Virus record (IMG/VR): IMGVR_UViG_3300042396_000450
Coordinates: 1-64,000 of that record
DNA length: 64,000 nucleotides
From: a virus
Strand: one strand, 5' to 3'
The position numbers and the translations under genes are program-made. Below the pieces are notes generated by a model. That model saw only the letters and a program-made list of their open reading frames with translations. It had not been told where the DNA came from and did not search any database. Each line of letters starts with the position of its first letter. The stretch's first letter is position 1. Shown piece by piece: positions 1 through 62,770 of this stretch.

Positions 1-570
1 GGTGATATAGCTGAGTTCAAGAAGAATAGTAAAGACAACACTCGACGTAACTTAATGATAGCTGGAGGATTATTAGGAGCAGGAGTATTAGGAACAGTTG
101 CAGTTAAAAGTTATTTACGCAATGGTAAATTAGTTAGACAAAGTACACGTAAAGTTAACAAAGTAAATAATGTCATTGATCCAATGAAGTTAACTACACC
201 TAAAGAAATAATAGATAATCATCAATCAGTTATGAGATTAGTTATTCCACATAAATTAGCTAAAAACTTTAAAGAAGGTCAAGTATTAGATCCTGATCAA
301 TTAGACGAACTTGTATCAAATAGTCCTTATTTTAAAATAGATAACAAAAATACACCAACACCATCTAATTTAAAACTTGATAATAATATTAAATTAGATG
401 ATGATAGTATGTCAGACACTTACATTGAAATAGCACATACAGCTAAATCAAATAATACAGCTATTAGATATTACATTAAAGAAGATATGAATAAAAATAA
501 TAAAGGTGTAATCTTAGTAAATAAACATTTAAAAACTCTAGACGGAATGCAAGATTTCAATAGAATCTAA
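1..570 (+). CDS. basic glycine-zipper family protein (putative internal virion protein), 5'-truncated by window
   Basis: Frame open from base 1: GDIAEF-KKNSKDNTRRNL-MIAGGLLGAGVLGTVA-VKSYLRNGKLVRQ. N-terminal region closely matches 24201..25061. Confidence 0.6.
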   Translation, partial: GDIAEFKKNSKDNTRRNLMIAGGLLGAGVLGTVAVKSYLRNGKLVRQSTRKVNKVNNVIDPMKLTTPKEIIDNHQSVMRLVIPHKLAKNFKEGQVLDPDQLDELVSNSPYFKIDNKNTPTPSNLKLDNNIKLDDDSMSDTYIEIAHTAKSNNTAIRYYIKEDMNKNNKGVILVNKHLKTLDGMQDFNRI

Positions 571-682
571 AACAAAAGCAAAACTATCACGTAAGAAAAA
601 AGGTAGGACAACGAAGCAATCTAATCAAGGCGCGACCTAACCTAAGTATAAATTTATACTAAGTACAAGACGCGCACTAAAT

Positions 683-712
683 AAGCTACCTAACATGAAC
701 TAGGTAGCTTTG
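683..712 (+). terminator. intrinsic terminator-like hairpin
   Basis: aagctaccta-N8-taggtagctt followed by only a short T run. Perfect 16-bp palindrome agtataaatttatact at 645-660 nearby. Confidence 0.45.
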
Positions 713-819
713 ATCTATTTACCTAAACTTACGTTCTGTATAATCATATGGTTTCCACTTTAATATCCATTATCTGTTATGGTGGATTAGTCCACGTTAT
801 TAACTTAAACTATACTAAC

Positions 820-2469
820 ATGACTTCCCGCGAACAATTAGAAAAAGAACTAGCTAACATAGAGAACAAGTTATATGAACTAGCGATACTAGATAATAAG
901 GATGAACAGTATGAATTAGAATCACTACTAGAAGAACAAAGTTACGTTCAAGCATATCAATCTAGTTACAGTTTCCTAGCTCATAGTTGGCAGACATTCA
1001 ATGGCGAAGTATTCCTACCAGCTAAACATCTACACGCAATAGCCGAACATCTAGATGCAACATTAACTGGTGAAATAAAACGACTTATAATTAACGTACC
1101 ACCTAGAACTGCTAAGTCAGCATTAGTAACTAAAGCATTTCCAGCCTATTGTTGGATAAGGCAGCCTCATCTTAAATTCGCCAACGTTAGTTATGGTTAT
1201 GGATTAGCAGAAGAAGGTAGTGTACATAGTCGTCAGATAATGCAATCTGATTGGTATAAGCGAGGTATGGCTACAGTATGGCGCGATATGGGTGCTACAC
1301 CATGGGAGTTCAGACGCGATAAGAATATGAAGAATGACTATGAGAATAATGCTAATGGTCGTAGATTCGCCACATCATGTCCTGAAGGTATCTTCACTGG
1401 TATTGGTGCAGACACAATTATAATTGACGACCCTGTTAAAGCTAACGCTGCATATAGTAAGAATACACTTGATAAAGTTAATCAATGGGTCAGCAATACT
1501 CTGATGTCGCGTTTAAACAACCAATCAGAAGGTGTTATCATCTTGGTTCAACAAAGGGTTAGTGAAATGGATATGACTGGTTTTTTCTTACAACAAGAAG
1601 GAGTTTGGGAACATCTATGTCTCCCAATGGAATATGAAGACACTCAGAGATACTGGACTCGCATTGGTTGGACTGATTGGCGCACTAATCAGAATGAATT
1701 ACTTGAACCAATTCGATTTCCGCGAGATGTGGTTGAGAGGCTCAAGAAGGACGAGGAATGGAGCTATGCTAGTCAATATCAACAACAACCAGTTCCGCTC
1801 GGTGGTGGACTTATTAGGCGTGAATGGTGGCAGAATTGGTACATACTTCCAACTCAGTTTGATGCAACTTGCATGGCATTCGATTTATCTATGAACGATA
1901 AGGAAACTAGCGATAATACGTCACTTATAGTTATGGGACGTAAGGATAACAAGTTCTACATTATTGACTTAGTGTATGGCAAAATGGATATACTTAAACA
2001 AGTAGAATCCATAATTGAGTTGTGTAATAAGTATCCGATGATAAGAACTAGGTTAATTGAACAACGTGCAAATGGAGATGCTGTAATTGCATTACTTAAA
2101 CGCACGATAACTGGACTTATACCACTCATAACTAAAGGTGATAAAGAACAACGTATCCTTAGTTGTGTGCCAGAAATTAATGCAGGTAACGTATTAGTTC
2201 CAGATGAGAATGTACATAGTTGGATTAAACCACTATTACTAGAAGCTACTATGTTTCCACGTGGTAAGAATGATGATGCTATTGATAGTATGCAGATGGC
2301 ACTTAATCATCTAGTTACGTCAAACATCGTTACTTATATGCCACTTCAAGTTATTACAGATAGTCCAGGTAATACAACTCGTGCTGAAATAAGAGAACAT
2401 ATAATGGATAGTAGTTATGGTGTTACAGTTAATGTGACTCGTAACTATATTAAAGGTTTATTTGAATAA
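820..2469 (+). CDS. terL: terminase large subunit
   Basis: Walker A-like INVPPRTAKS, Walker B IIIDDP, RNase H-type nuclease acidic motifs AFDLS and KNDDAIDS. Likely start MTSREQ at 820 (track start 748). Confidence 0.93.
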   Translation: MTSREQLEKELANIENKLYELAILDNKDEQYELESLLEEQSYVQAYQSSYSFLAHSWQTFNGEVFLPAKHLHAIAEHLDATLTGEIKRLIINVPPRTAKSALVTKAFPAYCWIRQPHLKFANVSYGYGLAEEGSVHSRQIMQSDWYKRGMATVWRDMGATPWEFRRDKNMKNDYENNANGRRFATSCPEGIFTGIGADTIIIDDPVKANAAYSKNTLDKVNQWVSNTLMSRLNNQSEGVIILVQQRVSEMDMTGFFLQQEGVWEHLCLPMEYEDTQRYWTRIGWTDWRTNQNELLEPIRFPRDVVERLKKDEEWSYASQYQQQPVPLGGGLIRREWWQNWYILPTQFDATCMAFDLSMNDKETSDNTSLIVMGRKDNKFYIIDLVYGKMDILKQVESIIELCNKYPMIRTRLIEQRANGDAVIALLKRTITGLIPLITKGDKEQRILSCVPEINAGNVLVPDENVHSWIKPLLLEATMFPRGKNDDAIDSMQMALNHLVTSNIVTYMPLQVITDSPGNTTRAEIREHIMDSSYGVTVNVTRNYIKGLFE

Positions 2470-60882: not shown

Positions 60883-60884
60883 GT

Positions 60885-61127
60885 TTATTTACCTATGTTA
60901 GCTCTTAATTGTTTACATTGCTTAGTGTAATAGTTATCTGGAAATACACAATCTTCTAATTTAAGATTAACTGTATTAACTCTAACTCGACTAAACGTTA
61001 ATGTAGTAACTACACCTAATATAAATAAGATAACTAATAATAAGTTATTAGGTGTAGTAGGTTTATTAATACTAAGCTTCTTAATAAACTTAAATGTAGA
61101 TTCTAAATCATCATCTATTTTACTCAT
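60885..61127 (-). CDS. small membrane protein
   Basis: Single hydrophobic helix. Confidence 0.5.
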   Translation of the reverse strand: MSKIDDDLESTFKFIKKLSINKPTTPNNLLLVILFILGVVTTLTFSRVRVNTVNLKLEDCVFPDNYYTKQCKQLRANIGK

Positions 61128-61683
61128 ACAAGTCCTCCACTATTTTTCTTACCTTATCACGTAATTCCTCTATTGTACCACTATTATCAATATAATATTG
61201 AGTTGGTACGAATGACCAATCATCTAATTTAATGTCCAGGTCAGTTGATTTAGTTTCACCTCTCCCATCTATGTGAAGTAACACTAACTCATAATCTAGT
61301 AACTTCAATAACTCTAACTCCGTTTGGTTGCGACAATCAACTATAGCTACATTACCTATAATAGAGTTAATGACATTCTTAGTTGCACCAGGAACTAGAT
61401 AGTTACCACCTGGATAGAGTGACTTAAATACATGAAAGAAGTTGTACATTAAATCATTGTAGGTAAATGATTCTAAGTTACCTGTAACTGGATTAACTAC
61501 AGGTTTAACTCTAAACTCCTTATCATCTAAACTACCTCTATCTAAACCTAACCAATCTTCTAATGGTGTTTTAAATGCACGACTAAACTTAACTATAGTT
61601 AGAGGAACTAATTCACTCAGTAGTTCAGCTACTGTATCCTTACCTGCATCAGACTTATCAGACCAAACTATAAATAACTTCAT
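61120..61683 (-). CDS. deoxynucleoside monophosphate kinase
   Basis: SDAGKDTVA, KFSRAFK, DCRNQTE, IDNSGTIEEL. Confidence 0.75.
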   Translation of the reverse strand: MKLFIVWSDKSDAGKDTVAELLSELVPLTIVKFSRAFKTPLEDWLGLDRGSLDDKEFRVKPVVNPVTGNLESFTYNDLMYNFFHVFKSLYPGGNYLVPGATKNVINSIIGNVAIVDCRNQTELELLKLLDYELVLLHIDGRGETKSTDLDIKLDDWSFVPTQYYIDNSGTIEELRDKVRKIVEDLYE

Positions 61684-61684
61684 T

Positions 61685-62770
61685 ATGCCAACTTTATTAG
61701 GACGTATTTTAATTAATCGTCAATTACCAAGCAAAGGTCAATTACTACAGGCTACAGCAAACAGAGCTAAATCTTTCATTAAAAATCCAATTAATACATT
61801 AAAAGAGGGATTAAATACTCATAAAACTGCTAATAATATCGCAAATAATCAAAGCACTATTATTGGTAGAACTTTAATCAATCGTCAATTACCCGGTAAA
61901 CGTGAGATACTTCAATCTGCGGGTAATGCAATTAAATCCGTTGTTAAAAATCCAATTCAAGCAGTTAAATCTGGATTAGCTAGAGATAAATTAGCTGTTC
62001 AAAAATGGGGATATCATACTGGACAAACTCGCGGACAAACAGCTATTAACCTTGGTAAACATATAGCTAGTGGAGTTTATAAAGGTGGAGGTAAGGATAT
62101 GCTAGTTAATACTGGTGGATTAATTGGCAGTATTAAGGGTGCAGCAATCGGCGGTAAAATAGGTTCACTAGCTGGAGATTGGGCTGGTGCAGCTACAGCA
62201 CGTAAAGGGTTAGACGATCTTGAAGCTACTCGTAACGCATTTAAGATTCGCAATAACCCTAACTTTCAGAAACAACCACTTAACGTTAAAGCTCGCATAC
62301 TAGCTAAACGCGCATCTGGTTATGCTAAGGCGAATAAGAAGGGATTTAATAGCGAACTTAAACAAGATACTATTGGTTGGGGTATTGGTAATAGTACTGC
62401 TGGTGCACTAGCTAATGTTGCACCAGCAGTACCATTTAAAGGTGCAGCAGTAGCAATGAAAACAACTAAACCTGTATATAAGGGTTTTCGTGTTGCTAAG
62501 AGAATAGCTACTACTAATACACCTAAGATTGGTAGAGTTAAAGCTCTACGTACTGGCATTACTAAGGGTGCTACATCTACTGGTAGAACTCTTCGACGTA
62601 ATCTAAATCCTGCTAGAGCAGTTAAAACAGGACTTAATAGAGAGAAGACTATGTATAACAGTGTTAATAATAGTCTATCTAAATTACCTCGTGTTCCAGC
62701 AGGAGTTAGTTTCAATAACTCTTATTTATTATGTGACTTTAATGTATCTACTATTAAATATAGGAGATAG
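61685..62770 (+). CDS. very basic glycine-rich protein, probable distant member of the internal-protein family
   Basis: Duplicated GR.LINRQLP.K...LQ...N..KS..KNPI, GxxxG runs, C-terminal SFNNSYLLCDF. Confidence 0.55.
   Translation: MPTLLGRILINRQLPSKGQLLQATANRAKSFIKNPINTLKEGLNTHKTANNIANNQSTIIGRTLINRQLPGKREILQSAGNAIKSVVKNPIQAVKSGLARDKLAVQKWGYHTGQTRGQTAINLGKHIASGVYKGGGKDMLVNTGGLIGSIKGAAIGGKIGSLAGDWAGAATARKGLDDLEATRNAFKIRNNPNFQKQPLNVKARILAKRASGYAKANKKGFNSELKQDTIGWGIGNSTAGALANVAPAVPFKGAAVAMKTTKPVYKGFRVAKRIATTNTPKIGRVKALRTGITKGATSTGRTLRRNLNPARAVKTGLNREKTMYNSVNNSLSKLPRVPAGVSFNNSYLLCDFNVSTIKYRR

Follow-up and report, generated by a model that had tools for sequence, protein, structure and literature searches.

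A mosaic family of basic glycine-zipper proteins with a candidate prohead-protease leader in the structural region of a long-tailed phage

Members of the family

The stretch of DNA analysed here (the window, 64,000 nucleotides) is the first 64 kb of the linear 111.6-kb IMG/VR record IMGVR_UViG_3300042396_000450, which is rated 92% complete and has a G+C content of about 31%. Between 1 and 39.5 kb it carries a family of 16 solid open reading frames (ORFs), joined by the C-terminal tail of the head protease, in which a short N-terminal leader, two basic motifs (B and C) and glycine-zipper helices are reused around unrelated middles. A first-pass annotation, made from the letters of this DNA alone, had listed about 18 such proteins and proposed that they are loaded into the head in the manner of the T4 internal proteins. 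The features it quoted were all reproduced in the translations at their coordinates, and 16 of the ORFs were found to share modules, but the two assigned more loosely, 26112 and 61685, encode basic proteins with no shared module at the sequence level. To that list the tail of the protease (14729..15952, residues 306-407) is added as a member. Genes are named below by their first coordinate.

1..570, plus strand: 5'-truncated member with the end of a leader, a glycine zipper, motif C and an unrelated C-terminal body
8658..9626, plus strand: 10-residue leader (8658-8687), motif C, glycine zipper, coiled-coil body
9634..11349, plus strand: 6-residue leader (9634-9651), N- and C-terminal glycine zippers, C-terminal motif C
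11355..12437, plus strand: two modules, the first leaderless with motif B and a zipper, the second with an internal leader (12045-12080), motif B and zippers
12441..12872, plus strand: 12-residue leader (12441-12476), motif B, two glycine zippers
12869..13591, plus strand: leaderless; motif C, weak zipper, AT-hook-like basic C-terminal tail
13588..14424, minus strand: leaderless; motif C, hydrophobic helix, alpha/beta-hydrolase-like body with G-x-S-x-G
15958..16587, plus strand: 26-residue leader (15958-16035), B-like basic motif, two glycine zippers
16587..16868, plus strand: 12-residue leader (16587-16622), motif B, two glycine zippers
21607..22404, plus strand: leaderless paralogue of both ends of 9634; glycine zipper, loose C-terminal motif C
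22409..23113, plus strand: leaderless; motif B right after Met, two glycine zippers flanking a charged coiled-coil
23115..23681, plus strand: leaderless; motif B right after Met, two glycine zippers flanking a charged coiled-coil
23842..24195, plus strand: 11-residue leader (23842-23874), motif B, DUF5754 domain, no zipper
24201..25061, plus strand: 10-residue leader (24201-24230), glycine zipper, motif C, putative R-S-E type mono-ADP-ribosyltransferase domain
29217..29486, plus strand: member among the tail genes; 18-residue leader (29217-29270), basic R-G-R-D-x-V-K-R-K, no zipper
38752..39477, plus strand: 12-residue leader (38752-38787), R-G-R-D-x-V-K-R-K as in 29217, glycine zipper
26112..26417, plus strand: loose candidate; small basic protein, no shared module
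61685..62770, plus strand: loose candidate; very basic, Gly-rich

In the truncated gene at 1 the predicted cut falls after codon 6 (bases 16-18), and the protein is 35% identical to 24201 over 125 residues. The domain common to 9634 and 21607 is conserved, and a profile search with it found no solved relative. The tail of 12869 (Lys-Arg-Lys-Arg-Gly-Arg-Pro-Lys-Lys, 13540-13588) resembles an AT hook and suggests that this protein may bind DNA.

Shared modules

Six-frame pattern searches placed motif B (R-x-x-G-[SD]-K-D-K-K-x-R-K) at 11361, 12084, 12480, 16626, 22415, 23121 and 23878, and motif C (V-K-S-[YF]-x-R-[KN]-G-K-[LV]-V) at 103, 8700, 11266, 12884, 14403 (minus strand) and 24309, with a loose copy of C at 22339; the same searches gave zero copies of either motif across 25-111.6 kb. 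Hidden Markov models (HMMs) built from the motif copies scored each copy at 20-39 bits and the rest of the genome at 8 bits or less, a test that is circular for the seed copies and that leaves the background clean. The expectation of the first-pass annotation that the motifs would not be spread through non-structural genes held, as neither pattern scans nor HMMs found the leader, motif B or motif C in the non-structural part at 64-111 kb.

Six of the 162 ORFs begin with the strict leader core, which has a background frequency of 2e-4 per position (P = 1.6e-12); looser forms add the N-termini of 24201 and 38752 and the internal copy at 12045. Because the copies of the leader and of the motifs use differing codons, selection acts on the leader peptide, and recent DNA duplication was rejected as the cause of its conservation on the same ground. 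A Sec or lipoprotein signal was likewise rejected, the leader being short, acidic and free of Cys.

In an all-against-all BLASTP comparison 14 ORFs formed one mosaic network (1, 8658, 9634, 11355, 12441, 12869, 13588 on the minus strand, 15958, 16587, 21607, 22409, 23115, 24201 and 38752), to which 23842 and 29217 are linked through their leader and basic motif. All members have an isoelectric point of 9.5-11.5 and most contain an uncharged Gly-rich 18-mer; in the zipper members the pattern G-x-x-x-G-x-x-x-G lies inside uncharged segments of helix length. The hydrophobicity of these segments is marginal, with Kyte-Doolittle 19-residue means of 1.0-1.85, mostly 1.0-1.5, and six segments at 1.6 or above. 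The zipper proteins matched nothing in Pfam or PHROGs, a tblastn search with 11355 gave zero matches in 50,697 phage records, and a search of the literature gave no report of glycine zippers in virion or ejection proteins. Motif B may resemble the mature N-terminus of ribosomal protein L27, a likeness of low complexity.

In the leaderless proteins 11355, 22409 and 23115 the initial Met is followed by Ala or Pro at the very position where the predicted cut of the leader-bearing members falls, which agrees with the equivalent mature N-termini foreseen in the first-pass annotation. Methionine aminopeptidase removes Met before Ala or Pro. Leader cutting in one type of member and Met removal in the other would thus give the same free N-terminus.

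Two leader-like sequences were seen outside the family proper. The C-terminus of 61685 (62720-62770) reads aromatic-Leu-Leu-Cys-Asp, several residues, Lys-Tyr, two Arg and stop. The gene at 44330-46993, which was not in the earlier list, encodes 887 residues matching phrog_15468 (unknown function) and begins Met-Phe-Ile-Leu-Thr-Asn; this leader-like start is its only family feature, with no basic motif or zipper behind it, and may be due to chance.

The head protease and the predicted cut-site signature

The head and tail genes referred to below and above are as follows.

748..2469: large terminase
5449..8544, plus strand: large minor head protein of 1031 residues with a weak MuF-type PHROG match
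14729..15952, plus strand: head maturation protease with a scaffold-like helical domain and a cargo-type tail
16881..17792, plus strand: acidic and scaffold-like; its A-E-F sites end at F77 (17109-17111) and F191 (17451-17453)
18685..19875, plus strand: major capsid protein, exon 1
32283..38708: tape measure protein of 2141 residues, directly followed by 38752

The tape measure gene is 2141 codons long, and the phage is therefore a long-tailed one. The protease domain of 14729..15952 occupies residues 15-171 and the basic glycine-zipper tail residues 306-407. The predicted structure of the domain, confident over residues 20-165, matched the varicella-zoster virus protease (1vzv) with Z 10.6 and T4 gp21 (5jbl) with Z 10.2 (root mean square deviation 2.7 A over 116 residues), followed by cytomegalovirus protease at Z 8.1, with unrelated rows at 6.7 or below; in a Foldseek search the top ranks were held by herpesvirus proteases only. 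By its model the domain is thus of the T4 gp21/herpesvirus assemblin fold. At the profile level the protein had no match to PF04586 (Peptidase_S78) or PF10123 (Mu-like_Pro) at E <= 1, the Pfam scan of it was empty, and phrog_976 was the only PHROG matched (E 3e-6); a profile search of the phage genome found no PF10123, PF04586 or PF04327. An HHpred match to PF10123 has been reported for the homologue in phage PA-SR01 (PMC10286775).

Of 68 protease homologues found, 17 with identities of 34-95% were aligned. Conservation is high over the N-terminal 160 residues, where His71 and Ser135/Ser149 are invariant and would be candidate catalytic residues, and the remainder is variable except for three nearly invariant Phe. 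F167 (15227-15229) closes an A-E-F directly behind the catalytic domain and F305 (15641-15643) closes a second A-E-F ahead of the basic glycine-zipper tail; both sites are kept in 16 of the 17 homologues and lie in segments with a predicted local distance difference test score (pLDDT) below 50 in the AlphaFold model, which are presumably flexible. The leader of 15958 resembles this protease linker. The same motif occurs twice in the acidic scaffold-like protein and once near the N-terminus of the 1031-residue head protein (A-E-F at residues 75-77, bases 5671-5679).

At the internal sites of the protease P1 is Phe in 32 of 32 cases, P3 is Ala in 26 and P2 is Glu or Asn in 24. Leaders from six lineages have Ala, Ser or Val at P3 in 18 of 21, Glu or Asn at P2 in 16 and Arg at P2' in 16, counts for which the search pattern had fixed P1 and P1' by construction and left P2 and P3 unconstrained. 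The agreement of leaders and protease sites at P2 and P3 is informative because the pattern left both positions free. Comparison of the sequences thus gives good support to the view that the end of the leader, matching the conserved sites of protease and scaffold, is a shared cut signal. A cut of the capsid protein at A-N-F (residues 73-77) was considered and rejected, since that site is not kept in PA-SR01.

Conservation in relatives

Relatives possessing the leader, the motifs and a syntenic head module range from 31 to 57% G+C and include a contig of a Scytonema genome assembly and the phages PA-SR01 and Pam2. The latter two, siphoviruses of Pseudanabaena, were the only matches among the 50,697 phage records and are not close to the phage of the window (capsid 26% identity, protease 31-32%). 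Four bands have been reported for the PA-SR01 virion on denaturing polyacrylamide gels (SDS-PAGE; PMC10286775).

In a contig with 73% capsid identity the Phe is retained at every site and the flanks have changed. In more distant contigs (32-57% G+C, the Scytonema contig among them) the leader reads Met, aromatic, Phe, Leu, Ser, Asp, 3-7 residues, Glu or Asn, and Phe, and is followed by Gly, Ala or Ser, Arg and motif B; proteins with motif C and the same gene order are also found there. In PA-SR01 the four genes that follow the protease contain runs of Lys/Ser-Ala-Asn/Glu-Phe sites lying between glycine-zipper segments. Across orthologues the leader is full, short or absent while the position of the boundary is constant: the 9634 orthologue of the Scytonema contig has a full-length leader as against six residues in the window, and orthologues of 12869 have short Phe-ended leaders whereas the window copy is leaderless. 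The small protein 16587 is the member best conserved among relatives, and an exhaustive profile search with its family recovered 20 clusters among 1.84 billion representatives, the N-terminal junction being kept.

Two of these clusters, P0087 and P0090, are two-module fusions like 11355, but with an internal leader that has no Met. These Met-less leaders favour endoproteolysis over internal initiation, an alternative left for 11355.

A small gene of the Xre-type helix-turn-helix class (14424-14636, minus strand) lies divergent from the protease gene in every relative examined, including PA-SR01. In the low-GC group 13588 is located downstream of this gene on the same strand.

Candidate cargo domains and turnover

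A profile of the 24201 family matched the ADP-ribosyltransferases Vis toxin (E 7.4e-9), SpvB (1.5e-5) and Tre1 (2e-4). PF03496 is recorded for three homologues, the window protein reaching 20.8 bits, under the 23.4 cut-off. The alignment contains R-Y-I-K, S-T-T and the final Glu, the first Glu of E-x-E being unaligned in the window protein; an AlphaFold model from a six-sequence alignment had a mean pLDDT of 47 and was unusable. Judged by these matches 24201 is probably a mono-ADP-ribosyltransferase of the R-S-E type. Its first 55 residues (leader, zipper and motif C) are nearly invariant in the family, and in the enzyme domain identity has fallen to about 40%. The protein of 23842 has a DUF5754 domain (PF19058, E 8.6e-9) and matches phrog_220, 'minor head protein and DNA pilot' (E 9.6e-9). 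For 13588 the G-x-S-x-G and an ESM Atlas match to alpha/beta-hydrolases serve as a lead only, and 23115 gave nothing usable in the ESM Atlas (scores 0.80-0.83).

The member set is hypervariable. The contig L034 is near-identical to the window in its scaffold, 17796 and capsid genes (99.5-99.7%; capsid 99.5%) and 100% identical in the helix-turn-helix gene at 14424-14636, yet about half of the set is swapped or diverged. L034 has nothing orthologous to 11355 beyond the leader and motif B and no orthologue of 22409; identities are 36% for 13588, 39% for 24201, 49% for 15958 and 67% for 8658, with 23842 among those at 36-54%, and in L034 it is another protein, of 400 residues, that begins with the leader and motif B of 23842. 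The internal proteins of T-even phages are also described as a highly diverse set having only the targeting sequence in common (PMC3012670).

Interpretation

We regard it as fairly probable that the leader is a cut-and-load signal, read by the prohead protease, on precursors of head-internal proteins. A T4-like signal of this kind is well supported by comparison and unproven, and delivery of the proteins to the host would be a further step of inference. We infer five steps from what was observed directly, namely the shared modules, the conservation of the motif, the fold of the protease, the identity of the enzyme and a hypervariable set of members. The members would be made together with the head genes and would enter the assembling prohead, probably by means of the basic and glycine-zipper modules, since a module of this kind also ends the protease-scaffold protein. 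In the prohead the product of 14729..15952 would cut after the Phe or Tyr of a motif consisting of a small residue, Glu or Asn, and Phe or Tyr; this would remove leaders, split fused modules, free the protease from its scaffold and tail parts and fragment the acidic scaffold. A common mature N-terminus (Ala, Gly, Ser or Lys, then Arg) leading into motif B or C would result, leaderless members reaching it through Met removal before Ala or Pro. The acidic scaffold pieces would then exit the head and the very basic mature proteins would stay with the DNA. At infection the members would leave with the DNA. The putative ADP-ribosyltransferase and the hydrolase-like protein would then act on the host, and zipper hairpins, being marginally hydrophobic, would bind DNA or insert into the membrane.

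Several points weigh against this reading. We know of no phage protease of the assemblin fold that cuts after Phe, and a literature search found no phage protease reported to do so. The tripeptide A-[DEN]-[FY] taken alone is only 3.4-fold enriched in the head region (P about 1e-3), and the case for the cut site therefore rests on context and conservation, not on counts; the fixing of P1 and P1' in the leader search counts here as well. The gene 13588, being on the opposite strand and co-oriented with the regulator gene, may not be a late gene, and zipper helices flanked by Lys and Arg fit the positive-inside rule of ordinary membrane hairpins. Finally, leaderless members exist; the leader can therefore be neither a requirement for the role of the family nor the only signal for loading. 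For such a signal the modules shared with the protease, basic and glycine-zipper, are suggested as equally good candidates. The T4-like loading put forward in the first-pass annotation is thus retained as far as the motif common to leaders, protease and scaffold, the gp21 fold, the Met-less leaders, the putative ADP-ribosyltransferase and the hypervariability go, and is weakened on one point, since the leader cannot be what alone directs loading.

A wider view is possible, though doubtful. It holds that a clade of large siphoviruses, infecting cyanobacteria and low-GC freshwater hosts, uses a portable 'address and cut' code, in which a hydrophobic start is followed by L-S-D, a short spacer, a small residue, Glu or Asn, and Phe, and by which any protein could be swapped into the capsid. 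The zipper hairpins would form a siphovirus ejectosome, inserting into the host membrane or coating the incoming DNA after release through the tail, and tagged enzymes, the putative ADP-ribosyltransferase for one, would reprogram the cell.

The members could, alternatively, be prohead-core proteins that are cleaved and then expelled or left inert, serving as additional scaffold or DNA-condensing filler, the motif being a disposal signal only. Scaffold and protease, which share the motif, are normally destroyed, most members have no recognisable enzyme domain, and isoelectric points of 9.5-11.5 would suit charge neutralisation of DNA. We consider this improbable: the same modules are borne by the putative ADP-ribosyltransferase and the hydrolase-like protein, and the set turns over between phages with capsids 99.5% identical, which is typical of conflict genes and not of filler.

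It is quite improbable that the members are instead unpackaged hairpins in the membrane of the infected cell, their basic ends in the cytoplasm, with a part in lysis, exclusion or membrane-bound assembly. The Lys and Arg on the outer sides of hydrophobic zipper segments, the six segments with a mean of at least 1.6 and the position of 13588 on the other strand with a regulator would accord with such a role. However, most segments reach only 1.0-1.5, in every relative the genes are placed among those for portal, protease, scaffold and capsid, and the protease ends in the same module. The leader, moreover, is too short and acidic for a secretion signal and its end matches the protease sites.

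The weakest account, which we hold to be very improbable, is that the leader is a binding tag left uncut or is cut by a host enzyme, as Prp cuts between Phe and Ala in phage 80alpha (PMC5744158). The junction of Phe with Ala, Gly or Ser does resemble a Prp site and the removed piece would measure 6-26 residues as against 13-14 in 80alpha, but the motif is conserved in the linkers of the phage protease itself, and the phage genome has no gene of the Prp family (PF04327), so that a host Prp-like route is unlikely. Prp and the extension of L27 are features of Firmicutes and some further phyla, whereas the relatives are tied to cyanobacteria.

Comparison with known systems

The closest parallel to the proposed cutting and loading is the capsid targeting sequence of T4 with the internal proteins IPI-III, Alt and the protease gp21 (PMC3012670, PMC5512222). 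As in the window, a short N-terminal peptide stands on basic proteins that evolve fast and are otherwise unrelated, the proteases agree in fold (Z 10.2 to 5jbl), an ADP-ribosyltransferase, here a putative one, is part of the cargo and the set is hypervariable among close relatives; 24201 would parallel T4 Alt in function and not in sequence. The two systems lack sequence similarity, cutting is predicted after Phe or Tyr instead of after Glu, and no member had a PHROG or Pfam match to the T4 internal protein families. T4 is a myovirus, whereas the present phage is long-tailed with siphoviruses as its cultured relatives. Motifs B and C and the zippers on the mature proteins, as well as the leaderless members, are further differences from T4.

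In phiKZ-like phages such as SPN3US the propeptides of ejection proteins are removed by one prohead protease at one consensus (PMC10052503, PMC7411985). Many head-internal proteins and paralogue families are processed there in this way, as would be the case in the window, but the phiKZ-like genomes are of 240 kb, no homology was detected, and the proteins described here are small and rich in zippers. The phiKZ-like cut motif ends in Glu.

The MuF polyvalent and polymorphic toxins (PMC5512222) likewise place varied effectors, including ADP-ribosyltransferases, on a head-incorporation module, and the DUF5754 domain of 23842 matches a PHROG with a minor head protein annotation. The MuF effectors are fused, however, whereas the effectors here would be separate small tagged ORFs, with 5449 alone having a weak MuF-type match. 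In 80alpha (PMC5744158) a short N-terminal piece is also taken off head proteins at a junction of Phe and a small residue; the enzyme there, a cysteine protease of the host, is linked to ribosomal protein L27, whereas the motif here lies inside a phage protease. The Dar antirestriction proteins of phage P1 (PMC12810830, PMC9024508) are several accessory proteins loaded into the head in a morphogenesis-dependent way and ejected, but no shared leader or module is known for them and there is no homology. Judged from the sequences, the set would match the T4 targeting sequence with its IP and Alt cargo, the phiKZ-like ejection proteins and the MuF-linked proteins in function, but is homologous to none of them and differs in predicted specificity.

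If the cut-and-load reading is right, a further system for loading proteins into the head would stand beside those of T4 and the phiKZ-like giants without detectable sequence similarity to them, with a new protease specificity (after Phe or Tyr) and a simple transferable tag. About 15% of the structural region of these phages, now annotated 'hypothetical protein', would become interpretable, and a pool of fast-exchanging, early-acting effectors in conflicts between freshwater phages and their hosts would come into view. The leader would also be a candidate tag for packaging foreign proteins in phages other than T4. The idea is directly testable, as the relatives PA-SR01 and Pam2 are in culture.

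Other features of the region

Within 11355, 54 nucleotides (11887-11940) are 96-98% identical to a stretch found in 22 otherwise unrelated genomes of Flavobacterium psychrophilum phages; this match may be a clue to the host or mark a small transferred element. Directly upstream of the start codons of 8658 (8640-8657) and 16587 (16565-16586) lies the motif GTAAGAAA. Other gene starts have T-A-A-T or A-A-A-T in front of them and no Shine-Dalgarno sequence.

The 3' end of the major capsid gene is split by a group I intron at 19842-20062 (Rfam RF00028, 80.4 bits, E 8e-19), and a gene for a GIY-YIG homing endonuclease follows 3' of it at 20242-21543. L034 has intron and endonuclease arranged as in the window; in L023 an endonuclease gene is also located 3' of the capsid ORF, which reads through to a longer C-terminus. 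The sole tRNA gene of the window is a tRNA-Pro (TGG) at 40278-40351. Three paralogues with 32-39% identity are scattered through the structural region at 25130-25948 (minus strand), 40470-41324 and 63711-64000+, and at least one of them has a weak match to a BstA-like PHROG.

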